Source of the DNA: Kondoa subrosea
Lineage: Eukaryota
NCBI GenBank assembly: GCA_039545335.1
Contig: BCIN01000008.1
Location: 300,363 to 320,362, forward strand
Reading direction: 5' to 3'
DNA: 20,000 nt
This document shows, piece by piece, positions 1 through 18,057 of the stretch. The number at the start of each line of letters is the position of its first letter. The stretch's first letter is position 1. Both the position numbers and the translations under genes were made by a program. The notes under the pieces are model-generated. The model saw nothing but the letters and a program-made list of their open reading frames with translations, made no database searches and was not told where the DNA came from.

Positions 1-1821
1 TGTCCCTGTCGAAGCGAGTCTTCGTACAGGTAGAGACGGCACACCATTTCCGCAGGGTTCCCGGAGTCTCCACCAGCTGATTCAAAAGCTTCGTCCGCTC
101 CTGACACTGATGATAGCGATCATGGCATGTCCAGATGTGGTCGTGGATTAAGCTATCGGTAGCGGAGAGAAACCAACAGTGAGGGCAGCCCTTTGCTTTC
201 CTTCTGTTCCGATCGCGAAGATCGATTCCACGGTTCACTATGGACAAATTCTCCTGCTTGAGATGCGCAAGCTTGAAATGCTGCTCCAATATCAGCCAGG
301 CGGGATCATCGATAGCGCGTGTAGGGTAGCAAGGTGTGACATAATCACAAAGTGTAGCTGTAAGCTGTCCTCGTTTGTCTAGATCCTTCTCTTCCGCATG
401 GCAATGGTATCCTACGAAGGGCGGCGTTGTATGCTTTGTAGCAAATGCGTGATCTTCTATCTCCTTCCTACTTGATGAGAATTCTCTACAGCCTTGACTA
501 GAACAGTACCATATTTGCGTTGGTCGATCGTGTATCAGAGCGTGGAGGGCCGAAGTAACAGTGCTCTCCGATTTGAGAGAATGCTTTCCGTAGACGGCTG
601 GCGCGAAGTATGGGTGAGCAGCACCTTGATTATCTACCAAATGCATGAGCTTGGGGACATAACACAACTCCAGACCATACAGGGCGGATGTGGATGCTCG
701 ACAGAGGCCCCACGGAATTGCTGATGATCTGCAAAATGCATCAGTCTGCGAACATATTAATCAGCAAGGCTTGAGATCCGAAGACACACAAGGGAGTTCT
801 TGCGAATTGCGGACGTTTTGATTTTGGACGTGCTGAGGAGGCTGAGAGATGTGTGATGCTGAAACCGAAGTTAAGAGACATGCAGTCGCAATTGCAGAAA
901 AGAAAACAAACGTTCAGGATGAGATCCAGCTGAACCATGATCATGATTTTCGAGATGGCCTCTAGGCTGGAACGTGACTGGAGGATGGATGGGCTGGGTG
1001 CTAGAACCAGCACCGCCTGGATAGTTTGACAATTGTCAGCGGGGAAAGTGAAATCCGAGGCCCTAATACCTGCTGTGAAGCTTGAGTACTGCGACTGTTT
1101 ATTCGAGCTTCAATTTCGGACTATAGCCAAAGTATATGCATACCTGAGCAAGGGTGGCTATTGATCATTCCTCAAACGTTATCCTCATATAAAATTGACC
1201 TTCACGTACTAGAAGTTGCATCCGGACGACAAGTCAGCGCTCCGATATCTTGAAGATTGGAAAATGGATGTCCGAATGCGTCAGCAGCCCCTATTATTCG
1301 ATACGACATCGTGATCGGCATAAGTTTCCCAAGCCCGCGATCAACCTACCTGCTGCATATTGCTGATATGAATGCTAACCATGCAGTATTAGCTCTTTAA
1401 TTCAATATACAACAGGCCTACAGGAGCCGGTACACCTTTCGGAAGAACATGTCAGAAGCAGTCATCCTGGTATCAAATCCGACTAACCAGAATTTCCACC
1501 ATTGTGAGTATTCATTGGACTCATGGAGCGAATGTTACTGGGCGCGACATGTCCAGGTTTGTCAGCACCGCCTCCAGAACAAATGGTAAGTATCCATCTT
1601 CGGGAACGGATTTCATTCTACCTGTTTGGAATTGATGATGCTCAGGTTGATATTGAGGCTATTGCCGGTTAGCATCATCATATAGAGGGTTCTAGTAGAA
1701 GAGGCATACCGGAGGTTGAACTATCGATATCACAATAACTCAGAAGTCATCTTCGAGCAAAATAGCCCGACTCACTAGCATTGCCATGTTTGTCGTGAGT
1801 TGATCCTTGGGCGTCGTTCAT
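1..1821 (-). CDS. C2H2-type zinc-finger protein with a Q/P/H-rich, micro-exon-encoded N-terminus; 3' end runs off the window
   Basis: Manual splicing gives exons 1821-1776, 1720-1710, 1658-1622, 1571-1488, 1435-1422, 1374-1350, 1290-1210, 1157-1144, 1094-1070, 1016-912, 858-790, 728-681 and 633-<1, all GT-AG and in frame. The last exon is open to the window edge. It encodes CSSQGC-x12-HAFATKH, CPHC-x12-HIWTCH, a degenerate YHC...LCDY...HFKLAH finger and a further CAVSTC at the edge. The ORF track misses it because there is no stop in the window. The start codon and small exons are less certain than the finger exon. Confidence 0.7.
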
Positions 1822-2455
1822 ATTGACTGATTCGATTTGAAAGTTGAAGAAGACAGTGGTTGGAAAAGAAGAACAGAAGAGAAGAAGAAATGCAAGCGAC
1901 AACAAAGGATAGCTTTCGAAAGATCTTGAGCCTTGAACATCATCTCAGAGCAACTAAAGCATGCTTGCTACAGCCATGAAGCAGACATACTCATTCCATG
2001 CAACTTCCTACAGCATCACATGGGTCAATCGTCTGAGCAACTGAGTTCAGGTTCTCTAGCTTCGCCTTCATATCGCAAAGAGGAGGCAGTGGTAAGATGA
2101 CGGAATATATCAAATCAATACGGAAAACGAATAAGCACAGCGAGGTTCTGTTACATCAGTAAATCTGCCCAAAGCGTGTAAGCGTCGCAAGTTGGATTTG
2201 TTCCACGCAACAGCGCTTGCGTGAGCCATGCTTGCACAAGAATAGCCAAGAACAGGAAATGCGACAGGAAATCAGCGAAACGAAGCAGGGTATAAAGAAC
2301 AGCATCTGTATTGCAAGTCCGTTTTTGCGATCGAGAATTGCTTGCCGAATCATCCATCATTGCATATACAACTCCATGCTCATCCAATAGCAGCCCTTGT
2401 GACAGGTCGAGTAGATTGGTTGTAAAGGCGGAATGATGTTCAAGGGTTTATGCGA

Positions 2456-3109
2456 TTAGATGAAGCCAATCTATCAGCCATCGTCAGTGTCTACTTCTTC
2501 AATCACAAGTATAAACCAACCTTGTTAGCGACATCCAAAGCATCAACGTCAGGTAGCAGTCTAATGAATGCCTTTTTCTTTCCATCCGGGCTGTACATTC
2601 GCTTGTGATCAGGCTTGTCAAGCTTTACGAGAACAAGGCCGCTCACCGAATGAGAGTGTTGATTGAAGCAGCCTCAACATCGTACAACTTCTTGATGGCC
2701 TGCTTGATGTGCCTCTTGTTTGCTTTGATGTCGACAAGGAAGACGAGGGTGTTGTTGTCTTCGATCTTCTTCATTGCGCTTTCAGTGCAAAGAGGTTGGA
2801 CAATAGTCCTGTAACATAACCAGCACATTGAGCTCTCGTACTCTTGAATTGCCTGCAAATTTCATTTTTGACAAACCTGTACTGGTCCATTCTTGGTGCA
2901 TGAGGAATGCTCTTTCGTGGGTACTTGGGTTTACGAGCAAGGCGAAGAGTAGTAGGGCGGTGGAAAGTGGTGCTGGTGCGAACCTTTCGCGAAGTGTGAG
3001 ATCCTGTTCCCTTCAAAGCGGCCTTCTTTGCTGCTTTCGCTTTGGCATCTTGTGGTTTAGTAGCAGAGCTCTTGCCCTTGGAGCTCTTGGTATCAGCCTT
3101 GCTGGACAT
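2456..3109 (-). CDS. RPL25: 60S ribosomal protein L25 / L23a (uL23), 159 aa, 4 exons
   Basis: Exons 3109-2877, 2808-2647, 2590-2521, 2470-2456. Family motifs: [74 protein letters not shown]. Confidence 0.97.
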
Positions 3110-3679
3110 ATTAGGGAGTTCGAAGAGTTTCTCGACGAGGGGAAATTGCTCTTTGAAATCCGTCGGATTTGCCGGGACTTGATGCCGGTCGCTCTGTAGG
3201 AGAGTGGAAGAGGCTCTTCCCTTCCTGCCTCTCTCTCCATCTCTCTTTAAGAGGGTCTTCGCTGGATCTGGCTCGCACACAGAGCGCACTCTAGAGTTCT
3301 CAATTTTCTTCACTTTATGCTACAGTATAGGCTTTTGTCAATTCCGCAAGCAGCGCTGCTCTATATGTTTGCTTCTCTCCTCCTTCTCATCCTTGTCTTC
3401 ATCATGTCACCGCCCTCGAGCGAAAAGCTTTACTTTGTTTTCTGTCACCTACCTTGTAAAAGCGCGTCGCATGAGCTGTCAAATGCGTTACGTAGTTCTC
3501 ACTCGTCATCACTCTGTATCATACGGCGGATCTTGCTCAAGATGCTTCTCACATGTTAACCTTACTAATTGTGGTTATGTTATTTTTGGTCACTGATCAG
3601 TGATTAATAAACAATCACGCCTATCCGCTCAAGCATGCTTTGCCCCTGTACAACCACTTCTTCCAGTAGTGAAATCAAT

Positions 3680-4495
3680 ATGTCTGACGCATTCTACGAG
3701 TTTGTTGAAGCTCGCCGGAGTTACTACGGAATCAAGAAAGAATCGACTCTCTCCGATGAAGAGATCGTAGAGTCAGTCCGAGCATGGTCCGAAGTATATC
3801 TAAGGTCCTCATCTGTTTGCTGTGTCAGGCTGGTTCGAAAAGCGGTCAAACATTGTCCAACTGCTTTCAATATGCAATCCACTCGAGCTGTGGTTTTCTT
3901 GGGTGATGAGAGTGTCAAGGTAGAGCTATATTGAAGTCCTAGATTGCTCACATGATGCTGAGCAGTAATAACTTGATTATAGCTCTGGGACATTGTTGAA
4001 GAAGAATATGCCAAAACTTTAAACGATGACAAGGATAAGATTGAGACCAACAAGAAACGTATGGATTCTTTCAAAGCAGCATACGGCACTATTGGCTTCT
4101 TCGAAGATCAATCCGTTCTTGATTCTTTTCGACAGAAGATGACTCAATTCCCTAAAGAAGCTTTCGAAGTCTGGTCAGAGAACTCTACTGGTATCTTACA
4201 ATACATCGTTTGGACTGCTCTCAAAGCAGAGGGGATGGGCGCTAGGTAAGAAGATCAATTATCTTCACTCGCGTATTGCCTTCCGCTAATCTTGGTTCCT
4301 CTCGTGCACAGTCTCCAGCATTACTTCTCTTTCTCTCCTGCTATTCCCAAAGCAGCCAACAAGACATTCAATATCGACGAGAACTGGAAATGCACCGCTA
4401 TTATGCCTTTCGGTGTTCCTACTGGAGGTCCTGGTCAACCCGGTCGAGAAAAGACCTTTGACAAGGTTGAAGAAAGGGTTAGAGTCATCCAATAG
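3680..4495 (+). CDS. Nitroreductase-family protein, Frm2/Hbn1-like, 209 aa, 4 exons
   Basis: Exons 3680-3771, 3829-3919, 3983-4245, 4312-4495 (630 nt, in frame). Motifs ARRSYY, KHCPTAFNMQSTRAVV, FKAAYGTIGFFED, VWTALKAEGMGASLQHY and MPFGVP are typical of this subfamily. Confidence 0.9.
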
Positions 4496-4638
4496 ACGTC
4501 AAGCCCAGCGATAGTAAAGAAAGTGTTATACTTTGTACCGACTGTTTATAAGCGTTAGATAATCGATAATTGATAAGCCAGAGACATTTCCGACTTGACG
4601 CTTTCGAAGTTCATATATCCCTTCATCTGTTAGTAACG

Positions 4639-5415
4639 ATGGCCTTTGACAAGTCTGCGAATCAGTTGCTGGAAGCAATCTTTGGCTGTATAGAAGACGA
4701 CATTATACCCAAGACTAGAGAACGCGTCAAGGCCGGGTGCAAAGTGTTTGGAGCGGCAATCTTGCGAAAGAGTGATCTAGGACTAGTACGTTGTCATGAA
4801 CGATGCAAAGATCAAAAGATCATCTCTACACAGGTGATTGCAGAAACCAACAATGAAATCACTCAGCCGCTCTTTCACGGAGAGGTCCATTGCATCTTCT
4901 GCTATAACAACTTACCTAATCGACCCTCTCCAAAAGACTGCATCTTCGTAACAACGCATGAACCATGCAGCCTTTGTCTATCTGCAATCACTTGGTCTGG
5001 CTTTGATAACTTTGTTTACCTGTTCTCGTCAGTGATATCCTCATTCTCGATTCGACTTGAGCTGATATCGTAGTCCAGATACGAAGACACTAGAGATGCA
5101 TTTCAAATACCATACGATATTCAAGTCAGTCCGTCGCCAGGTACTTAAAGGCAATCACTGACGAGGCAGCAGATACTCGAAGCGGTATACAAAGTGCAAG
5201 GGAAAGAAGAGAAGGAAGACTTCGATCAACGACTCTTGTACAATAGAGAGAACGCTTTCTTCAAAGCGTTGAGCGTAGCGGATTTGATAGCGAAGCTGGA
5301 ACCTAAAGAGCAAGAACGTTTTCAAAGGAGGAAAGCAAAGCTGAATGAAGAGTATGCAAAGTTGTCCGAAGTGTACCAGAGCAGCAAAGGAAATGCTGGC
5401 ATTCCACTAGCGTGA
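4639..5415 (+). CDS. Zn-dependent cytidine-deaminase-fold nucleoside deaminase, 209 aa, 4 exons; substrate unknown
   Basis: Exons 4639-4785, 4834-5027, 5079-5124, 5173-5415 (630 nt). The last acceptor is a CAGCAG NAGNAG. Catalytic motifs HGE and THEPCSLC (HxE...PCxxC), with an upstream FGAAIL. Confidence 0.9.
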
Positions 5416-5885
5416 AATCGCGTATGACAAGTTGCGAGGAAGAAATGGAGCATGATCAACTGAGTTGAGAAGAACCTGATCAAAGACCTCGTCGACTGTT
5501 TGCTACGCGTTCAAAGTGACAGTAAGGCGAGTCAGTGTCATCGGAAGGGAATTCATGATCAAGCTGAGTTTGCGAAGAGGCTTAGTGAAGCATAGTGAAG
5601 CGCAAGTCGATTAATTCGAACGAAGGGAAAAGGTCGGGCAGAGTGGTAGAGGAAGGCTTATCCCTGAACTTATGCAATTGAGACCAGTAGACCATTGCTT
5701 AAGTAGTTCGGTAGCCATACACAGTATAGGGACTAAGAAGAGCGACAGCGTATATACGAGATGCAAAGATAAAAAGGCTGCAGACAAAGCCAAGAAGACA
5801 CATTCGAAACAGTACAGCAGTAGCAAGACAAGGCATAGCAGAGCATAGCGAGCATAATTTACAGAGTGACAGCCATGAGAATGCT

Positions 5886-6951
5886 TTAGGGAAGCCTCTT
5901 TCCATCATCGCCATATACAAGTACTCCAGCGCATCGTTTCTGTTCTGTCAGTGCTGCACGTAATTCGATCAATCGGGACTTCCCATCGTGCTGATAATAG
6001 TGTCCTGATAGCCAGGCATATTTGACCACATTGTTCTGATCGACATAATGCAACAAAGGCACTTCCGAGACCTTTTCTATGCCATCTTTGTCCTTGATGA
6101 TGATCCGACGAGGCATTTCTAGAGCATGACCGCGCAGGTAAGGATCGGTAGGCGATGGATAACGAATTATCGTAACATTCTCTCGGGGTTGACCTGCGTG
6201 TTTGTAGTCGTGAACTTCGAAATAATCGATCTGTTGGCCTCCTGATACAATGCTATCGTGCCTATAGCAGAAGCGCTGATGAGGTCCAGAAGGTTCAATG
6301 ATGGTTGGCCAGTGTTCGGGTTTATTGATAAGATCCTTATGCTGTTGATGAAAAGCTTCCGAATTCTGCAAATGACTTTACTGACAGTGATTGAGCACAC
6401 AGAGAGAGATACTAACTCTAGGCTGCATGCCCTGGGCTTCTTCCAATTGCTTTCTGTTCGAACGCAGCTCGTCAGGGAATTTGCCCTGCGGTACAATTCA
6501 GCTGTATCGGTGCAGATTGGAAAGGGCTTACATCCGGGAATAGCTGATATATGCTTTGCCATTCTTGATCGTGGCTATACGCAGAAGCAGTATGAAGTTG
6601 GGCCAGGCTAACAGGGTTCTGCTTGTCTAGTACATTGATTTGAGTCCTTGCTGGCGTGTATGGATTGTTCTCGTCCATCAAGGACCTTTGAGGAGCATGA
6701 GCAGACTCATCTAAAGGCGTATCGACAGGCAGATTACGGATACGGCGCATAGTCTCTGAAGATACTGTTGAAGAAGGCGAGATGGCCCGGGCAGGTTGAC
6801 CAAAGTTATGGACAGGAGAAGGCCCGACGTGATGAGAGAAGTCATCTTCCAAGTTCATACGTCCTCGGCGAGCGCTATATCGTTGGTAGTCGTGAGCACC
6901 AGGGAAGTCAGCATCAGGAAAGTCGCCATATCCGTGATAAGGTAAAGGCAT
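5886..6951 (-). CDS. Hypothetical protein, about 322 aa, 3 exons
   Basis: Exons 6951-6532, 6485-6417, 6365-5886. Introns GTAAGC...CAG (46 nt) and GTTAGT...CAG (51 nt) join two ~160-aa ORFs in frame through GKFPDELRSNRKQLEEAQGMQPR. No domain recognised; start codon uncertain. Confidence 0.65.
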
Positions 6952-7713
6952 GCTGAAAGCTAGATCGTCGAGATGAGAGAAAGCAAAAGCCGAATGAGCA
7001 ATCTCCAGATAGAGAAGAAAGGGAAAGCATGATCGCCTATCGTGGCCGTAGATCGAGTCAGAGCGTTTGTATAGTGAGGGAGCGAGGCATCAGTACTGTC
7101 ATACTGGAGGAGCATGAGTTGTCGAAAGGGGGATCCAAACAATGAGTCGAGTCTTCAGATCAAAATTAGTAGGGCGTCAATTCGTATGCTTCATGGAATG
7201 AAGAACAGGACCAATAGACGGCAGGCATCCGACAATGAGACAGGCCAGCTCTCCAAACCAAGAATGAGCATCTGACCTCGCCAGCGATTCGCTCCTTCGA
7301 GGATTTGAGACTTGATGATGACTGTTTTGCATTGGGACGGTCTGAAAATTACAATCCACGATTCGCAGCAGCATGCAAGACCAATTGGACAGGAAACTTA
7401 TTGTTCGAGAAACTCCAGCTGCAGTTCGAGAATGGTGATCTCCAGAGCGATTAGTCTGCACCACCAGCGATCATAAAGCGAGACGATCAGCGACTCAACC
7501 TGGCAGCGAAGGCGACAGCATAGTCACGGCTTTCAACAAGCATTGCAATGCCAAAACTTGGTCAACCTGTATCAACGACTATCGCGCCCGATGACCACGC
7601 TAGACACGCGACTCTCAGCCTTGAGCTTGGATCCTGAAGGCAGCAGCAAGCTCCAGTCCAAAGTGAGCGAGATCTCATCCAAAAGTAAACACAAGAATTG
7701 TGTTTGACTTCGT

Positions 7714-9087
7714 ATGTCACAGTTTCGAGCTGGAAAGACTAATGAAGCAGAAAGCAGAGCCCCTCTGACTAAGATCCAAACGACTTCGCAATCGAAAACT
7801 ACTACTTTCAAGCCTACTCGGCCTGCCTCCAATGCTGTCCCTTCCTCTTCCACTTCTCGTTCTGTTCCATCTTCCCAATCTTCTGTCGCATCTTCTTCTC
7901 AGCCTGTTGCGGCTCCTTCGTTAGATTTCGGTCGGTATGACGGAGGCTTGGAAAGGGATGAGGCAGCTGCTAGAGGTGATGTGATTGAAGGTGAAGCGGC
8001 AACGGAATTGGCATTGGATTCTAGCTCTTCAAAGTGTGTCACTTCACTGCTCTTGTCTTTACCGAACTAATTGTACAAAAAGATTGACTCGCCCAACGAA
8101 ACCTTGGAAATTTTCAGATTTCGAACTAGGTCGTGCTCTAGGCAAAGGCAAATTCGGCAGAGTTTATATGGTCCGAACAAAACATACAGAACCTCAATAC
8201 ATTCTCGCTCTGAAGTGCTTATACAAATCAGAACTCGTCAAGGATAAAGTAGAGAAACAGACACGAAGGGAAATCGAAATCCAATCGAATCTTCGACATC
8301 CTCATATCCTTAGACTGCATGGTTATTTTCATGACGAAAAGCGGATCTTCTTGATGCTTGAGTTTGCTGGAAAGGGAGAACTGTATAAGCAATTGTCGAA
8401 ACATGGCAAGTTCAGCGAAAAGAGATCGTCAAGGGTCAGTGCAGGTCATAAGCTCTATCAGTCTATCGCTGATTCAAAGGTTACCGCATCTGACAGTACA
8501 TCGCGCAAATGGCCGACGCCTTGCAATATTTGCATAAGAAACATGTCATTCATCGAGACATCAAACCTGAGAACATTCTGCTTGGCCTGAATGGTGATTT
8601 GAAGATAGGCGACTTCGGTTGGTCAGTGCATGCTCCGTCAGATCGGTGAGCTATTTCCCATCTGATCGAGGTCGAGCTGAAAACATTGATAGTCGATCAA
8701 CACTTTGCGGAACTCTCGATTACCTACCTCCGGAAATGGTCGAGGGCAAACATCATACAAGAGAAGTCGATCTTTGGGCACTAGGAGTATTGACGTATGA
8801 ATTCTTGGTCGGCGCTCCACCTTTTGAAGAGCTCAGTGGGGCGCAAGCGACCTACAAGAGGATAGCGAAAGTCGATTTGAAGATCCCCGAGACTGTTTCG
8901 GCTGAAGCAAAGGATTTGATAAAGAGTGTGAGTTGAATATCATACGGATAAGACGTAGGCTGATGTGATGCAACAGCTCTTGCGACATGATCCTGAAGAT
9001 CGCTTGCCGATAGCAGATGTATTGAGGCATCCTTGGATACTAAAGTATAAGAAGACGAAAGACTCGCAACAGCTGGAAGCAATCTAG
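7714..9087 (+). CDS. IPL1: Aurora serine/threonine kinase (Ipl1/Ark1-like), 388 aa, 5 exons
   Basis: Exons 7714-8033, 8083-8434, 8497-8645, 8693-8927, 8977-9087 (1167 nt). Motifs [62 protein letters not shown]. Confidence 0.96.
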
Positions 9088-9366
9088 CGTCGCGTTTACT
9101 TATTGTGATAATGTACATTTGTCGGTAGCACAGTTCAGTTTGCATTCCAATCACATGGCATAGAGCATCTTTTAGCCAGTCTTTGCAAGTTCGAAGTCTA
9201 CACTTCGACGTGTATAAGATTCACTCCTTGTTCCGGACTTTCACGTTGAATCGGTCGAGAATTGCTCAGATACCACACAAAGCTCCTTATCACTGATCAG
9301 AGCTGTGATATCGCGTAGGAACAACCGCACTTGGCTTCGTGTTAATCCAGAAATACGTGATACATT

Positions 9367-11281
9367 ATGAGCGCCGTCAAAGAAGCCACTGCGGCCTCCA
9401 AGAAGCAGTCTGATGAAGTGTTCAAGATTCTCAGAGCTCAAAAGGCCAATAAGGTTAGTCTGCCACGCTTGAAGCATGCTGTCCATGCTGAATTATCGAA
9501 TTCGCCAGATGTGCTTTGATTGTAAGTCTACATGCATCTAACCATTTGCGGGCCTAGCTAAAAGGATACTTACAGGCCAAGCAAAGAATCCTACTTGGTC
9601 CAGTGTTACTTTTGGCGTTTATATCTGGTGAGCGCGACAGATAGTCAAAGTCTTGCTCGAGCTAAGCTTTCCTCTAGCTTGGACTGCTCAAGCAATCACC
9701 GCAATTATGGTGTCCATGTATCCTTTGTCAGGTCGACCAATCTCGATCTATGGCAGTACCAACAACTGCGCACGATGAAAGTCGGCGGCAACGCTTCTTT
9801 TAGCGAATTCTTAGCTCGTCATCCTGGCAGCGCTAGTAGTGGTAACGTCAAAGACAAATATACTTCAGCAACAGCTACCAAATACAAGGAGGAACTAGGC
9901 AAAAGAGCAGCTGCTGATTTAGCGCAATTTGGTATCGGTCACGTTGTTTTAGCGGACAGCGGTGTAGATATCGGCGGAGCTCTGGTAGTGGACGACAAGG
10001 ATGGAAGCAAGGATGATTTCTTCGAATCTTGGGATAAGCCAGCAGTACCAAAACCACTCAAAAACGATGCGACTGCTCCTCCTCCTCAAATCTCTCTTAC
10101 GCCAAATTCTTCTCGTCCTGCAACACCCAGAGCTTCTTCACCTGCTCCTCCTACTCCTACTGAAGCAACTAAACCAGTTGCACCTACAGCTCCCCGAACG
10201 GTCTCTTCTTCCGCTTTACGAAACGCTACACCAGCTACCGCAGGTGGTCGAGCAAAACTTGGTTCTCGTCTCAACTCAGCATCCAGTATCACAGGCTCAA
10301 CTACTTCCACAAACGCAGTAGGAGGTTCTAAATCGAAACTAGGAGCAAAGAAAGCAAACGTGACTATTAATTTCGAAGAAGCAGAACGAAAAGCTAAAGA
10401 AGAAGAAGAAAGGATCAAGAAGTTAGGATATGATTCGATCAGAGAAGCAGAGGAAGCTAGCAAGAAACAAAAAGAAGCTCAGAATGCTGCTATGGCTCAA
10501 GCGGCTAGAGATAATGCTGCTGCTTCTGCTGCTGGAAAACATCAGAGAAAGACTAGCGATAATGAACGATTGGGGATGGGCATGGGACGATTAGGGTTTG
10601 GTCAGACTATGGGTGTTAGTGGAGAAGAAAGCGCGAGGTTGGCTGCTCAAGCCAAGAAAGCTGCGGATAGAAAAGCTGCTGGATATGATGATGGTACGTC
10701 AAGACCGCTCACATGCGATGAGGATCGCTCATCAGCACCGACTGTTTCTCGCACAGATGCGCCTGCCGATATTCCTACTTATGCAAGAGAGAAGTTTTCA
10801 GCTCAGAAGGGCATATCGTCGGACCAATACTTTGGTCGCAACTCCTATGATCCCGAAGCTGCTCGAAACGCTCAATCTCGTTTAGCGCAATTCGCAGGAG
10901 CTACATCGATCTCTTCTAATCAAGTTAGTTATTCTATAGAAAGTTGCATTTTGTGCTGAGCCTCTTTTGCAGTACCATGGCATCAATGAAGATGAAGCCG
11001 ATTTGGAAGAGTCTATATTGAACGGAGATTCACTAAGTAGTCTAGAACTTGGAGCTAGACAATTGGCGAAGACAGCAATGCAAAGCGCTGGATATGAAGA
11101 TATCAACCAGTTGAAGGATGCTGTAAGAGATGGAGCACTCAAAGTGAGTATACTTGTCCACATAACTATTATCAGCGCTGATCTTGTTCATTTATCAGCT
11201 GGGCGATTTCTTGCAGCGAGTAAGTCTGAAACTGTTTATGCCAGGAATTTGCTAATCTCTGCGCGATTGTAGTATGCATAG
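9367..11281 (+). CDS. GLO3: ADP-ribosylation factor GTPase-activating protein, Glo3/ArfGAP2-3 type, 511 aa, 8 exons
   Basis: Exons 9367-9453, 9509-9521, 9576-9627, 9678-10693, 10757-10923, 10973-11143, 11199-11219, 11273-11281 (1536 nt). Zinc finger CFDC-x16-CLDC followed by HRNYGVHVSFVRSTNLD. C-terminal Glo3 motif KGISSDQYFG...ATSISSNQY. Confidence 0.93.
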
Positions 11282-11486
11282 AGTGTTGCAGATATAGGAT
11301 GATAGAGGAACATATTGCATATCGTATCTCGTTTCAGTGACAGCACGTTCCGAAAATCTTTACAAGCTTGTTCTGCATACGCGAGGTTTCTTTCACTAAA
11401 CTTTAAGAAAATCTGCCTTGTCGCTCTCTTTGGCTTTCTGTATTTGGAAAGAAGAGGGATGAGCCTGTTCTGGCCTTTGGGTGTGC

Positions 11487-12473
11487 ATGGAAGTCGAGCA
11501 GACGCGCACGAGTGAATCAGATGAGAATCGAAGACAACTGGATTCAGCCAAAGAACAGATCGCTCTGGCGGCTGCGGGCTCCCACACAGCTGCACACACA
11601 GTCGTTGTGCCCAACACAAACAATGCAAGCACAACTTCAGCTGGAGGCAGCAATAGAAGACCATTCATTGTTCCAACAATTATACATACAGATGGCATCA
11701 AAGAAGTACCTCGACGCTTCGAACAGTGTGATATAGAAGAATTGGTTGTACTCATAGGTGAATCCAAGTATCCATCGTTGGTTCGGCTCTTAAAGCTAAA
11801 TCTGTTCGTGAAAGCTGGCATGCTAGACAGACTTATCAAGCACAACGATCAAATTCCACTCACTCAAACTTCTCTCACTCGCTTTCATTCACGCGCACCA
11901 CCTGGCATTTCAGTGCATGATTATCTTCTTCGCATCACTCGTTATACAAATGTCGAAGCATGCTGTCTCTTGATTCTCCTACACTATATCGATAAGATCA
12001 CTGAACGACTAGCGGCCTTTACCATCTCAAGTTTAACAGTACATCGGTTTCTGATTGCGGGAGTCGCTTGTGGAAGTAAAGCGTTAAGCGATAGTTTTTG
12101 CACCAATGGAAGATATGCAAAAGTAGGAGGTGTATCCTTAGCGGAAGTCAATCTATTAGAAAAGGAGTTCTTGGCTGCTATAGATTGGAGATTGACAGTA
12201 AGCTTTCTTTTATCCCTCCTTCTCAAAGTAACACCGCTGACTTATGCATTGATTTAGACAAGTGGAACACTTCTTGCCCAGTATTATACATCACTCGTCC
12301 AATCTAATCCGGCCTTTCGACTAGCAGAAGTCGAGGTCACGCAGCCACCAAATTCATCAGGAATCGATCCAGACACATTATCAACTGCAGGAACTTTGGC
12401 AAACGGTCACACAGAAGGAAAAGAGGATGGCAGGCAGGAAAAAAGAGAAACAGACAAAGAGGGTTGGGAATAA
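11487..12473 (+). CDS. Pho80/Pcl-family (Preg-like) cyclin, 289 aa, 3 exons
   Basis: Exons 11487-11757, 11815-12197, 12258-12473 (870 nt). Cyclin box motifs LTRFHSRAPPGISVHDYLLRI, SLTVHRFLIA, KALSDSFCTNGRYAKVGGVSLAEVNLLEKEFL. Confidence 0.9.
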
Positions 12474-12694: not shown

Positions 12695-15600
12695 TCAATA
12701 AATGGGTAGCGGTGTAGGAGTGAAGCCAACAGGTATAACGTAGTGCTTCTCAGGTGCTGGAGGCTTGGTACTGTTCCGTTGGTTGAAGGGGATGACTAGC
12801 GCAACAAAATTAGCCGAGCGAACACCAACAGTAGTAACAGCTGCGACGAACTAGATACCGTTACATTAAAGCCTGGAGTTCCGTTATCGCTTGTTCGCTC
12901 TGGGTGGGACGCGTTGAATGCCAGCGGTTGGAAGCATGTCATGCCATAGCAATTGCCAACGATACTTGAATTCGCACCAAAAGGAACGCTAAGGGTGACG
13001 TTGTGAGAAGAAGCTGCGATTAGCCAATCCTTCATCACGGCAGGTGTAGGGTTGCCATAGAGTGAAATCAGATATGCTTTCATGCCGGCAACTACAGGAG
13101 TAGCCACTGATAGACAGTAAAGTCAGTTCAGTTTATTCCGAGCATTGGCAAAGAGAAGACGTACTGCTGGTTCCGGACAATTCAGCGCCAATGTCTGGAC
13201 CACCAATCCAATCGGAGAAGATACCAGATCCAGGAGCCCAGATATCGACAGAGCCACCCCAATTCGAAAAGGGACTTGAGTCATCTTTCTGAGTTATTGA
13301 TCCGACAGTAGTAACTTCAGCGACTCGACCAGGCGAATAAAGTGAAGCATCATCGGCGTTATTGCCAGCAGCGATCGTACTTTCGGTAGAAGACCGTGAG
13401 CATCATCAATATATAGTCATGGAAAGTGAGGAGACATACACGTGAATGCCTTTTTTGGTCAAAGCTCTACAGGCAGCGTCCAGTCCAGAATTGGGCGGTC
13501 CAGAGAAAGACAAGGAGACGACTGAAGGTTTTTTAGTCTTCCTTGCTACCGTTGCGACACTGTCAAACGTAACTTCAGCAGAGGCCAGTGCGCAAGTACC
13601 GAATACCCACTAATTCAGTCCTTTGACAATGTCAGCGCTTGATCCTCCGCCGTCATCGCCAAAGACTTTGATACCGAGGATTCTTGCTTTCTTAGCGACA
13701 CCATACTTTGTTCCAGCTGCCACACCAGCACAGAAAGTCCCATGACCGTTTCCGTCTTTTAGCTAATGGTAGGTATTTAGAAATCTGCCGAAGGCTCAAA
13801 GAATATGATGTCCTACTGCATAACCACCAAAGGCCTTTAAAAACTTCACTCTGCCACCAAAATCTTGGTGACCTGTGTAGATTCCAGTATCGCTACAGCC
13901 AGGAATATCAGCAAACGGATTCAAGAAAGAGATACAGAGAACACACAGCAAAAAGATATCAACACCTGCACCGGCTGTTCCATTGTAGTAGTAATTCGGG
14001 GTACTCTTGTTCGTGACAGTGACATTTGACGAAGCGCGGATCAGGTGCCATGGAGCTGCTTTTTGGGTCAGGATGGGCTGCACTGCACCAGCAATGAACC
14101 CAAGAGAATCAGCGCTGATGCTCTCGACTTCTGCTTTGGCAGTGACAGCATCGAGAATGACACCACGGAGAATTGCCTGAATCTTGCGTCAAGTAACGTA
14201 GAAACTTGTTTCAAAAGGGAGACTTACAGTGTAGATACCGAAACCAGGATAGACATCAACAGGTCCAGAACCACTTCCACCGTCGGTTGTTCCAGCCGGA
14301 CCATCATATGCATCGTGCGGGACGTAAGCTGTGGGAACAGGTGGTGGTAGATCTGGTGCAAAGGGATCAGCGGCAGTCGGGTCATAGCCAGGGGATCCGG
14401 GTCCAGTATAAGGTGTGCCACTGTAGCAAGAAGTCAGGATCAGCGTATAATAGCGCAAACGGGACAACCAACTCTGCGTTGATCTTCGAAGGAGTTCCGT
14501 CAGGATTCACTGGACCTGGAACACACTATCAGCTCCGTAATGTCTTCTCAGCGAAGTGACCAACCTGGATAGGGTGTGCCTAGCAGGGTTATGGATTAGT
14601 TTGATGTCTAGCAAAGCAGATAAATTCGTACCATCGGGTAATGTGGGCACAGGCTGAAAAACGAGTAATCAGCACAACCGCTTTACTAGCTGAAGAGGTG
14701 AGACATACTGGAACATAGGGCGTGCCGCTGTTTCATAATCAGCCGAGTGCCGGGTAAGATACTCAGAGACACCTACTCGTAGTTGAGCTTTGAAGGTGTT
14801 CCACTGTTGCTTAAAGGTCAGCACTTATACAGATGAGGATGAAAGGAGGACAACGAACTCCTCGTTTGTCGGTCCAGAGTACGTAGTTCCCTGTTGAAAG
14901 CCAGTTCAGTCTCCAGAAATTACTGGATGCAAGCAAGACCGACATCTGGATTGAGGAAAGGGACCGGAACATAGGGCGAGCCACTGCAATATGACTCAGC
15001 TTAAAAGTGAAAACATTGTATTGATCGGCTTACTCTGCGTTGACTGTACTCCAAGTACCACTGTTCATGAAAAGGTCAGCAATCTGGTGTTTTGGCATCA
15101 GACGAAGCTGCGTACTCTGCGTTCAAAGGACCTGCAAAGGTTGTGTTAGCTACTGTTCTGAGCACACGAGGAAGTTAGAGCTTGCCTGTGTAGGTACTTC
15201 CCTAAATATAAATCAGAGCGTCAGCTTTCTGAGTATAGGTAGATGGAGAGGTTGCTTACATCTCTGTTCGTCTTTGGGATAGGCACAAATGGAGTTCCGC
15301 TAGAGAGAATCTTAGCAACAACTAGCGGGATCGCAATAGAATACCTACTCAGGATAGGTGGCAGAAGGGTAACCATCTGCAGTGAGAGGACCGCTGTATA
15401 CCGAACCATCTCCGTTACGGTATATGCCATCTGAAAGCGATATATTAGATTCCCGGTCAAATCGCTAGTACGCAAGGCAAACTGACCAACACCCATACCA
15501 GGACCATATACTACTGGTGCAGGTGGAATGGAAGATGCTATAGTTATTTGCTTTATTCAGCGAGAGGTTTGATACTGCATGAGCGGAGAGCAACTCACAG

Positions 15601-18057
15601 CTCCCATCTGTAGTCGTGCTGCCATCTGCTGGCGTGCTACCATCTGCTGTCCCACTTCCGGAGTCAGTCGTAGAATCAGAAGCTGTAGTGCTTCCATCAT
15701 CTGTTGTTGAACCAGAAGCCGATGTGCTACCAGAAGCTGGAACATCTGAACAGAAGAATCAGCACCTACTCTGCAAGAAATCAAAGCAACTTGCAGCCTG
15801 GATAGTAGTAAGGTGTTCCATCGCTGAGAAAATATCAGCGATTTGCTTCAATATATTTTAGAGACGGACTCACGGGTTGAGAATAGCGATAGAACCATCA
15901 GGATTCACCGGACCTTCACAGGAGGAATATAGAATCAGTATCGGTTAATGATCTGCATAAGAATCGACTTACCAGTGTAAGGGGTACCATCCGCGTTGTA
16001 AGCTGGAGGTGGCACATATGTTGTTCCGCTGCAACGATACTTCAGATACAAAGAAGATATCAATTGAGATATCGCTCACTCATCGTTGATCTTGGACGGG
16101 GATCCCTGTATTCATTGAGCGTGTCAGATGCGAGGAAGGAGATTTTTTTTGGGCCGGAAACGTACATCTGCATTCAACGGGCCTGGAGGACGGGAAAGAC
16201 CAGTTCAGCTACTTATTTCTTCATCAAGTCAACGCTACATACCAGCATATGTAGTTCCCTGAAGGAAAAAGAAATATCAGTAACGCAATATAGTTATTAC
16301 AAAGATAACGAACATCAGGATTCAGTGCGACTGGTGGCGTATAGGGTGATCCACTGTGCTTAGGGATCAGAATAGGAGGTCGCATTCGATCGGGAAGAGA
16401 GCACTGACTCAGCATTGACCAATGAGGGCGTTCCGTCTGGGTTGACAGGTCCTGCGAGAGCAGTTCAGCTTGTGGTATACAGCAGAAGCAAGGCACAAGA
16501 CTGACCTCCATACAAAGTGCCGTCTCTGTTGAGCGCTGGAGTTGGCACATATGGTGTTCCGCTGCAACGATACTTCAGATTGAAAGAGATATCAAGTGAG
16601 ATATCGCTCACTCGTCGTTGATCTTGGACGGTGATCCCTAGAGTCATGAAGCGTGTCAGATGTGAGGAAGGAGAATTTTCGGCGGACACGTACATCTGCA
16701 TTCACTGGGCCTGGAAGACGGGAAAGACCAGTTCAGCTACTTATTCTTCCACCAAGTCAACGCTACATACCGGCATACGTAGTTCCCTGAAGGAGAAAGA
16801 AATATCAGTAACGTAATATAGTTGTGACGAAGGTAACGAACATCAGGGTTCAGTGCAACTGGGGGCGTATAGGGTGATCCACTGTGCTTAGTGATCAGAA
16901 TAGGAGGTCACAATCAATTCAAAAGCAAGCACTCACTCAGCATTGACCAATGAGGGCGTTCCGTCTTCGTTGACAGGTCCTGCGAGAGCAATTCAGCTCG
17001 TAGCATACAGCAGAAGCAAGGCACAAGACTGACCTCCATACAAACTTCCATCTCTGTTGTACGCTGGAGGACTAAAGCAGATGTAAGTACAAAGAATATA
17101 GGTCAGAAAGTCAAACAAGACTTACGGAACATATGGATCGCCAGAGGCATCCACTTTGGACATTGTACCATCAGGGTTCTATGTATTGAGCGCATGTGTC
17201 AGACGGTGTCCATCAGAAAGGACTATTGACTGACAACTGGACCAGTGTAAGGCGTTCCTGTTGACACAGATTAGTGCAGTCAAATAAAACTTGATAGGAA
17301 GATACGGACCATCTCTGTTCATTGGCACCGGTCTGTAAAGAGGAATATCAGCGTCCGTTAATTGTTACCAACCAAGTTCACAAACGGAATGTATAACGAG
17401 CCGCTGAACAGGAAGTCAGCGACAGCCTAGAGCAACATCAGTGCCACGTACTCTGCGTTGTAAGCTGATGGAGTGCCATCGGGATTAAGAGGACCTGTAT
17501 GAATGTGTGAGCGTTGCTCAACAAGATATGCCAGCGAATGATGAACCTTGATACGCAGAACCATCTGGATTCGTGAACGGAACTGCAAGAAAGGTTTAAG
17601 TGACTGTCGCCAGAGAATGGCTGAAGAACCCACTTGGAGCTGGGTAAGGGCTTGGAGGTCCTCCATTGGCAGCAATAGCATCTACAGAGCTTCTCAGCAC
17701 TTTGATGCCGGGTCTTGTGCCAAAAGACTGACCGTATAGCCATGCCAAATGCTTGTCCATATCAGAACCTCCAGTTAAGACGACTAAAAACAAATCAGGT
17801 TGACCAGGTCCACCGACTGCACGAGTTGAAAGATGATGATGGCTTGCAGTTGTTGAATTGGCATAGTATTCTTGAGATTTATACTCTTGACTGAAAGTTG
17901 GCGCAGCCACTACAGGTTCCGAGTAGCTGGCCAGCAGCACAATGACAAAGAGTGGTCCCAAGAGCTGGTTGAAGACACATTGCAAGACCACAAAGAGAGC
18001 AGTTCGACTGCACTTTGGCGCGAGCATTTGAGGGCCGGCCCTCTTGTAGTAGTCCAT
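12695..18057 (-). CDS. Proteinase K-family subtilase (peptidase S8A) with a repeat-interrupted I9-like propeptide; about 996 aa, 45 exons
   Basis: Exons: 18057-17733, 17681-17634, 17582-17547, 17494-17452, 17403-17386, 17332-17310, 17257-17235, 17178-17126, 17071-17034, 16979-16937, 16881-16842, 16786-16771, 16710-16694, 16637-16612, 16561-16506, 16451-16409, 16353-16314, 16258-16243, 16182-16166, 16105-16080, 16028-15973, 15913-15874, 15823-15795, 15745-15599, 15537-15487, 15430-15349, 15299-15260, 15201-15186, 15131-15116, 15060-15034, 14983-14944, 14890-14859, 14803-14777, 14727-14709, 14653-14632, 14579-14565, 14515-14473, 14420-14228, 14176-13947, 13892-13817, 13762-13611, 13559-13440, 13379-13165, 13106-12852, 12795-12695. 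Total 2991 nt with all phases consistent. Catalytic triad LDTG (Asp 13891-13889), DGNGHGTFCAG (His 13744-13742), SGTSMATP (Ser 13168-13166), plus oxyanion AAGN. Mature start resembles TQKAAPWHLIR. The frame of the last exon and the start codon are less certain. Confidence 0.85.
14390..17571 (-). repeat. Protein-level tandem repeat: 11 copies (7+4) of a 33-aa unit NxDG(S/T)xYxGP(V/L)-NxDGTPSxx-NxDG(S/T)PYxPPxxx
   Basis: Visible only after splicing, e.g. NRDGSLYGGPV NEDGTPSLV NADGSPYTPPVAL and NPDGTTYSGPT NEDGTPSKL NYDGTPYVPPVPT. The 11+9+13 aa spacing holds in all copies. Confidence 0.88.
16011..17070. repeat. Direct tandem DNA duplication, two copies of about 530 bp (16011-16543 and 16544-17070), covering six exons and six introns
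   Basis: Near-identical segments offset by 528-533 bp, e.g. ccgctgcaacgatacttcagat (~16026 and ~16559), cgggaaagaccagttcagctacttatt (~16191 and ~16719) and cagcagaagcaaggcacaagactgacctccatacaaa (~16480 and ~17008). Confidence 0.95.

Follow-up and report, generated by a model that had tools for sequence, protein, structure and literature searches.

Eleven 33-residue turn repeats, a candidate new family, in the pro-region of a proteinase K-like subtilisin gene of Kondoa subrosea

The gene described here lies on the minus strand of a 20,000-nucleotide window of Kondoa subrosea DNA, and its closest described relatives are the fungal proteinase K-like subtilases that carry PF00082 and PF05922. According to the accessible part of PMC5371821, the I9 propeptide of proteinase K-like subtilases serves as an intramolecular chaperone and inhibitor. 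For the Glaciozyma PI12 protease, of 963 amino acids (aa), 18 introns are described, and repeats are not mentioned in the available part of the report (PMC4100274). Aromatic hairpin repeats that act as multivalent wall anchors are described for the pneumococcal choline-binding modules (available part of PMC4929436), which are used here as an analogy only.

The window (contig BCIN01000008.1 of GenBank assembly GCA_039545335.1, positions 300,363 to 320,362 of the forward strand; coordinates below are window positions) comes from an intron-rich fungal genome of 18.9 Mb in 27 contigs. The gene at 18057-12695 (-) encodes a predicted secreted proteinase K-like S8A subtilisin zymogen, with the same Asp-His-Ser triad and oxyanion Asn as the fungal family, as far as that family is covered by the accessible part of PMC5371821; a putative signal leader and a probable I9-like pro-region would be further likenesses. 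It is unlike the family in having a pro-region insert of about 510 aa and a C-terminal extension of 66 aa, in having Phe after the catalytic His-Gly-Thr where proteinase K-like subtilases have a listed H/S/A/V-type residue, and in an I9-like region that lies below Pfam detection on single exons. The insert carries eleven tandem units of 33 aa with three Asn/Asp-Gly turns each. The units had been noticed in an earlier reading of the same DNA (the original prediction), which lacked the context of the host gene, a subtilisin with the array in its pro-region. The enzyme family is well known, and what appears new is the insert with its repeat, neither of which was found in the libraries searched. 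The literature searched, which spans few subscription papers and excludes Supplementary Fig. S1 (domain architectures) of PMC5371821, contained no account of the repeat or of any large insertion in I9.

Host protease and gene model

Pfam Peptidase_S8 was matched by three downstream exons, two above the cutoff and one below it. The triad is intact (Asp709 at 13891, His740 at 13744, and Ser895 at 13168, all minus strand), the oxyanion Asn830 is present, and the closest solved chains in a ranking of the Protein Data Bank (PDB) were proteinase K, the serine protease 3f7o, and aqualysin-1. At least five S8 loci, including the window gene, were found in the genome. The translations of the other four resemble kexin, tripeptidyl peptidase II, a vacuolar-type proteinase K-like enzyme, and a pyrolysin-like enzyme, and the window gene appears to be the only secreted proteinase K-type gene among the loci found. 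Compared with two basidiomycete-type S8A genes in locus L022, identity is 35-41% over longer segments and one intron position is in common, a phase 0 intron directly before the catalytic-His exon. Locus L022 holds two tandem ordinary I9+S8A fungal genes at 1297-3037 and 4637-6560 (+). P0001, from an ENA contig, is closely related to the catalytic domain, with breaks that match, and was the only match among 99 candidates in the word-indexed protein search with exon 42; the same search with exon 1 and exon 38 gave no match among 638 and 277 candidates, respectively, and these are weak negatives.

The spliced model has 44 exons and 43 introns and gives a single open frame of 1,013 codons. Exon borders were hand-picked from a list of minus-strand donor and acceptor candidates with the repeat already known to the analyst, and the splicing is a prediction. 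Intron lengths are 48-61 nucleotides (nt) in all 43 introns, with a median of 54 nt; donors are GT in 41 and GC in 2, acceptors are YAG in 41 and AAG in 2, and a branch-like site was found in 42 of the 43 using a loose pattern. The GC-AG introns 22 (15794, -) and 27 (15185, -) are needed for frame continuity. Exons 2-36 have a median length of 32 nt, with 17 of these 35 at ≤30 nt. The repeat units are cut by 33 introns and for that reason stay hidden from open reading frame calling, as had been predicted. Within the unit, introns recur at nt 68 in 9 of 11 units and at nt 25 in 8 of 11. Independent support for the gene model comes from these conserved offsets, from the ratio of non-synonymous to synonymous change (pN/pS), and from homologous fragments whose breaks coincide with those of the window gene (the latter two are given below).

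Contiguous exon blocks that sum to 99, 198, or 297 nt (one, two, or three unit lengths) number 32; these sums would permit, but do not show, variation of array length by skipping of whole units. Two in-frame ATGs stand at the gene start (18057 and 18027, -), and either may be the start Met. The leader (17905-18057, -) contains two hydrophobic stretches and is of unusual length; it would be a long signal peptide or, possibly, a signal anchor that stays uncleaved. Intron 37 (14227-14177, -; 51 nt, phase 0, one stop codon) interrupts the I9-like C-half. Intron 43 (12851-12796, -) has a usable donor, branch site, and acceptor. If it is spliced, the C-terminal tail is Pro-rich, and if it is retained, the protein ends in a Ser-rich spacer and a hydrophobic C-terminus resembling a glycosylphosphatidylinositol signal, which is to be read with caution, as T-rich introns often read so by chance. 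The features of the gene are as follows.

12695-18057 (-): whole gene, predicted secreted proteinase K-like subtilisin precursor, 1,013 aa (gene model; Pfam S8 on three exons; closest solved chains)
17905-18057 (-): N-terminal hydrophobic leader, aa 1-51 (hydropathy windows >1.6 starting at aa 19-36; putative cleavage site)
17737-17802 (-): I9-like N-half, strand 1 and helix 1, about aa 86-107 (weak I9 profile alignment, in register)
15741-17571 (-): repeat block 1, units 1-7, aa 146-376 (spliced model; unit analysis)
16003-17063 (-): recent two-unit internal duplication with introns (DNA identity, units 3-4 versus 5-6)
15417-15740 (-): Ser/Thr/Gly/Asp-rich linker, aa 377-445, with an 18-nt tandem repeat at 15600-15649 (composition; Tandem Repeats Finder)
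14390-15416 (-): repeat block 2, units 8-11, aa 446-577 (spliced model; unit 8 and its lead-in matched by the homologous fragments P0005 and P0025)
14261-14389 (-): Pro/Asp/Gly-rich linker, aa 578-620 (composition)
14090-14260 (-): I9-like C-half, about aa 621-660, with a putative autocleavage site near its end (fungal I9 profile)
12952-14089 (-): mature S8A domain, about aa 661-947 (Pfam; triad; PDB ranking)
12695-12951 (-): C-terminal extension, aa 948-1013, 66 aa (gene model; form depends on intron 43)

The repeat array and its relatives

All eleven units of the original prediction were reproduced letter for letter by the spliced minus-strand model. They start at 17571, 17319, 17058, 16850, 16530, 16322, 15997, 15416, 15268, 14952, and 14641 (-), the last one ending at 14390, and are arranged as seven units, a Ser/Thr/Asp linker, and four units. 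The fixed spacing of the turn motifs claimed earlier proved exact, at 11, 9, and 13 residues in every one of the 11 units. The 363 unit residues contain 29 instances of N-x-D-G, whereas 2,000 shuffles gave 0.40 on average and never more than 3; for a relaxed turn motif the number is 33, or three per unit. Pairwise identity between units averages 59% (range, 39-94%). The units are Cys-free, as claimed, and each has two conserved Tyr positions (about 22 conserved Tyr over the array). Pro makes up 19%, Gly 14% (33% together), and Tyr 8% of the unit residues; the net charge over the 11 units is -28, and the isoelectric point is 4.05 for the insert versus 9.1 for the mature enzyme. The array contains no dibasic sites, and the Ser/Thr linkers are probably O-glycosylated, judging by composition. 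Only the 18-nt linker repeat was detected in the array region by Tandem Repeats Finder.

The array expanded through duplication of exon-intron blocks. Units 3-4 and 5-6 form a duplication with a period of about 530 nt and 88.6% DNA identity over 533 columns, in which the six intron pairs are 87% identical (13% diverged). In the spliced frame, the duplicate pair has a pN of 0.055 and a pS of 0.212 (8 non-synonymous and 11 synonymous differences; pN/pS of about 0.26), and all 55 unit pairs, which are not independent of each other, have a pN of 0.304 and a pS of 0.756. The low pN relative to pS means that unit residues are constrained by purifying selection. Selection at the level of residues argues against an inert spacer, in agreement with the earlier view that the array is not a simple one.

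A profile search had also been proposed; a profile built from 16 exon pieces was run against 1.84 billion representatives and gave 27 hits, 4 of which were taken as homologues. With a full-unit profile, these scored 42.7 (P0008), 37.4 (P0025), 32.7 (P0018), and 28.7 (P0005) bits per unit, and the other 20 stored proteins listed scored ≤14.6 bits per unit. The remaining 23 hits (among them FG-GAP, Ig/cadherin, propeller, and cuticle repeats, and P0023) were set aside on the per-unit score. P0023 is an S8 protein whose catalytic domain is preceded by four repeats of about 45 aa with turn motifs; the spacing of these motifs is different, the score is 9.4 bits, and it is probably unrelated.

The four homologues are fragments in which the type of host gene, subtilisin or other, is not visible. 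P0005 and P0008 each come from a 3,651-base Logan contig, possibly one and the same, P0025 comes from a 25,988-base contig, and P0018 comes from another ENA contig. P0005 and P0025 match unit 8 plus its lead-in, with similarity ending where intron 25 begins, and at the end of P0005 the middle-turn exon is bounded at both recurring intron offsets. P0008 has more than one full unit without interruption and seems to start and end in introns at the same offsets. Intron positions are apparently common to three of the four fragments, as read from protein read-through rather than from DNA. The third turn of unit 2 is irregular in both the window gene and P0008, in which the loop is one residue longer, and such variation would be expected of hairpin loops. 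P0018 has a signal-like segment, a Thr-rich stretch or stalk, and then two to three turn motifs, with no S8 or I9 part in the fragment, and the turn motif may be used in other secreted proteins. By these matches, the repeat is kept in other assemblies.

No second copy of the array was found in the same genome by DNA search or by two short patterns, and eight pattern matches elsewhere in the genome were isolated motifs without an array. A search of the genome with P0008 found no second copy either, but it missed the known locus too and is hence uninformative. More than one N-x-D-G-[ST] was found in 0 of 41 metagenome S8 loci, relatives of P0008 were found neither among 52 viral candidates nor in plasmids, and neither exon 25 nor P0008 had a usable match in the ESM Atlas. 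P0008, P0005, P0018, P0025, and exon 25 all stayed below the cutoffs of Pfam and NCBIfam, in scans that covered pieces (P0008 being one full unit plus flanks) rather than the full spliced array. The consensus patterns of MORN and RHS/YD repeats had 0 matches in the units, and the pieces gave no Pfam hit to them. The claim that the repeat belongs to no catalogued family survived these scans, and on sequence grounds the repeat is a candidate new family.

Three known repeats come closest. CW_binding_1 repeats (PMC4929436, available part) are likewise tandem short hairpins with Asn/Asp-Gly turns and conserved aromatics on an extracellular enzyme. The array differs from them in that it lacks their Trp/Tyr-rich consensus (0 matches, and one Trp among the 363 residues), the unit is a Pro-rich one of 33 aa and three turns instead of about 20 aa, and it sits in a removable pro-region. 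Designed Cake/Bagel PQQ-like blades (PDB 6TJx/8PRx) share NPDG-type turns and partly similar spacing, whereas the array scores only 5.5-8.5 bits per blade against them, has three turns rather than four, and shows no long strands in the model described below. P0010 (Cimex lectularius, UniRef "CPR type cuticle protein") is an extracellular structural protein with a short Tyr-x-Gly-Pro...Leu-Asn-x-Asp-Gly stretch; unlike the array, it has one turn per helical unit of about 60 aa and scores 6.6 bits with the unit profile. The Tyr-x-Gly-Pro...Asn-x-Asp-Gly stretch is present in 17 copies in P0010, a faint likeness that may be convergent.

Propeptide position and fold of the array

Between the first I9 strand and the Trp at the start of the mature domain lie 584 aa in the window gene versus 71-86 aa in 64 other precursors, which were the measurable ones of 84 examined loci. 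Residues 637-661, in the I9-like C-half, scored 10.6 bits at positions 52-76 of an 82-position profile of three fungal I9s, and 0 of 300 shuffles of the C-half reached the joined score. Residues 89-107, in the N-half, aligned in register with profile positions 4-22 at a domain score of -1.1 bits and add little; the joined score was reached by 5 of 300 shuffles of the N-half, or by 2 of 300 with a mixed profile. The vacuolar-type paralogue of the genome has a variable stretch at the same I9 place as the array insert. The variable loop that follows helix 1 of the I9 propeptide has apparently received the insert of about 510 residues. The I9 character is moderately shown for the C-half and weakly shown for the N-half, and we consider it probable that the propeptide is a split I9.

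NPDG-type hairpin turns are known mainly from model peptides. A type I turn with a G1 bulge is often found in 3:5 hairpins (PMC8301185, available part). P0008 was modeled with AlphaFold2 (AF2) from a 13-row alignment, with a mean predicted local distance difference test score (pLDDT) of 61, about 67 over the repeat, and a predicted template modeling score (pTM) of 0.32. Each of its four complete turn motifs is closed by one beta-bridge, at 26/32, 37/43, 46/53, and 60/66 in the DSSP string, where the residue before the turn pairs with the residue two after the Gly. Every complete turn of the model is closed in this way, which supports the hairpin turns of the original prediction. The repeat part of the model has no strands of ≥3 residues, and a model of P0018 was of low confidence (pLDDT of 58). 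The earlier idea of a small folded module was not supported in the globular sense, in view of the 33% Pro+Gly, a position on the disordered side of the charge-hydropathy plot, the pTM of 0.32, and the absence of a fold match when the P0008 model was searched with Foldseek and VIA-align. The P0008 model suggests, with modest confidence, that the array is an extended string of mini-hairpin loops and not a globule.

Proposed function, alternatives, and significance

The reading that we favor, with a probability of roughly 0.4, is that the acidic, extended mini-hairpin array in the propeptide tethers the latent protease. The two I9 halves would fold together with the array looped out, and the assembled I9 would chaperone the enzyme. 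Autocatalytic cleavage would take place near residue 660, after which the pro-fragment would remain bound as an inhibitor; because the array would be covalently part of that bound inhibitor, it would act as a multivalent tether of low affinity. Its ligand may be a cell-wall or matrix polysaccharide or a surface, on which Tyr would stack, with avidity on a repetitive ligand. The latent protease would be parked until the propeptide is degraded, and the basic mature enzyme would then be freed. A bolder form of the proposal, in which an undescribed family of three-turn mini-hairpins is a multivalent binding module in the I9 loop that anchors the latent protease on the wall or substrate, with a length tunable by unit skipping, is tentative and rather doubtful.

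Several points weigh against a tether in a split propeptide. The splicing of the 44-exon model is predicted from DNA. With a profile of 74 bacterial I9 sequences no score exceeded 1 bit, Pfam Inhibitor_I9 matched neither I9-like exon, and a scan of the genome with Pfam Inhibitor_I9 found only the vacuolar-type paralogue. In pairwise comparison, the two halves scored 30 and 34, and scores as high as 37 were reached by unrelated windows of this protein, and the N-half had no match to one of the three fungal I9s (1,352 of 2,000 shuffles). The AF2 model is of a 69-aa homologue and was built on a shallow, partly mis-registered alignment, and by charge and hydropathy both repeat blocks fall narrowly on the disordered side (0.424 versus 0.443 and 0.415 versus 0.438). 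There is a single Trp in all 363 unit residues, the CW_binding motif has 0 matches in the units, and no Pfam hit to it was found for P0008, P0005, or exon 25.

The disorder and composition also fit an array that binds no ligand and is a largely disordered, glycosylated, protease-resistant, acidic spacer or timer, which would aid secretion or slow the destruction of the propeptide and so delay activation. The 19% Pro, 14% Gly, and net charge of -28, the side of the charge-hydropathy line, the lack of dibasic sites in the array, the pTM of 0.32, and the missing fold match all agree with it. The exact 11/9/13 spacing, the Tyr columns, and the unit-specific features common to the homologues exceed what a spacer needs, and we regard this explanation as unlikely, although it is the most serious of the alternatives. 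The weak match of the N-half and the unusually long leader with two hydrophobic stretches would suit another arrangement, in which the likeness of the N-half to I9 is due to chance, the leader is an uncleaved anchor, and the array is a stalk that projects a truncated propeptide and the protease across the wall until release by autocleavage. Yet the N-half aligns correctly, without a shift in register, where the I9 profile begins, and an I9 C-half alone would be without strand 1 and helix 1 of its fold; the stalk is given a low probability.

The units might instead close into a compact fold, either degenerate beta-propeller blades (7 + 4) or a beta-hairpin solenoid. P0008 and the exon profile do match the designed Cake/Bagel propellers, and the 7 + 4 grouping would suit ring sizes. 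Each blade contributes only 5.5-8.5 bits, however, with low E-values arising from the summing of identical blades. There are three turns per 33 aa versus four per 40 aa, prolines stand at would-be strand positions, a natural PQQ-type protein scored 9.6 bits versus 28.7-42.7 for the true homologues, and the AF2 model has single bridges only, which makes a compact fold improbable. Still less probable is the binding of Ca2+ or another cation, by which the array would regulate zymogen stability or attachment to mineral. The 33 Asn/Asp-Gly turns and the strong acidity would favor it, but none of the canonical patterns (Dx[DN]xDG, EF-hand, RTX, and DxDxDG) had a match in the units, one acidic residue per turn would be too few for a canonical site, and the Ca2+ suggestion of the original prediction was not borne out. 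The array might also have expanded neutrally, through unequal crossing-over within a tolerant loop lost at maturation. The visible recent block duplication and the variable loop of the paralogue would point that way; this reading is already disfavored and similarly remote, given a pN/pS of about 0.26 in the duplicate although its introns diverged by 13% and given the unit-specific features kept in homologues.

The neighboring genes on the plus strand are housekeeping genes by Pfam, an ArfGAP at 9370-11250 and a Pho80-type cyclin at 11463-12473, the latter convergent with the subtilisin gene. Further away, at 2490-9090, are genes that we take by eye to be ribosomal protein L25/L23a (-), nitroreductase-like, deaminase-like, phosphoribosyltransferase-like (-), and Aurora-like kinase genes, and no secretion or secondary-metabolite cluster was seen by eye at 2490-9090.

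If the array were only a spacer, the architecture would be odd but minor. Splitting into micro-exons causes the repeat to be missed by prokaryote-style gene callers and by Pfam, and the array offers a natural series of hairpin-turn motifs. Subtilisin I9 propeptides are regarded as small chaperone-inhibitors, compact, disposable, and about 80 residues long. A natural I9 propeptide bearing a selected insert of about 510 residues would show that a propeptide can hold a second job, in localizing the zymogen or in timing its activation, and the I9 loop would mark a site at which cargo could be engineered into industrial proteases.

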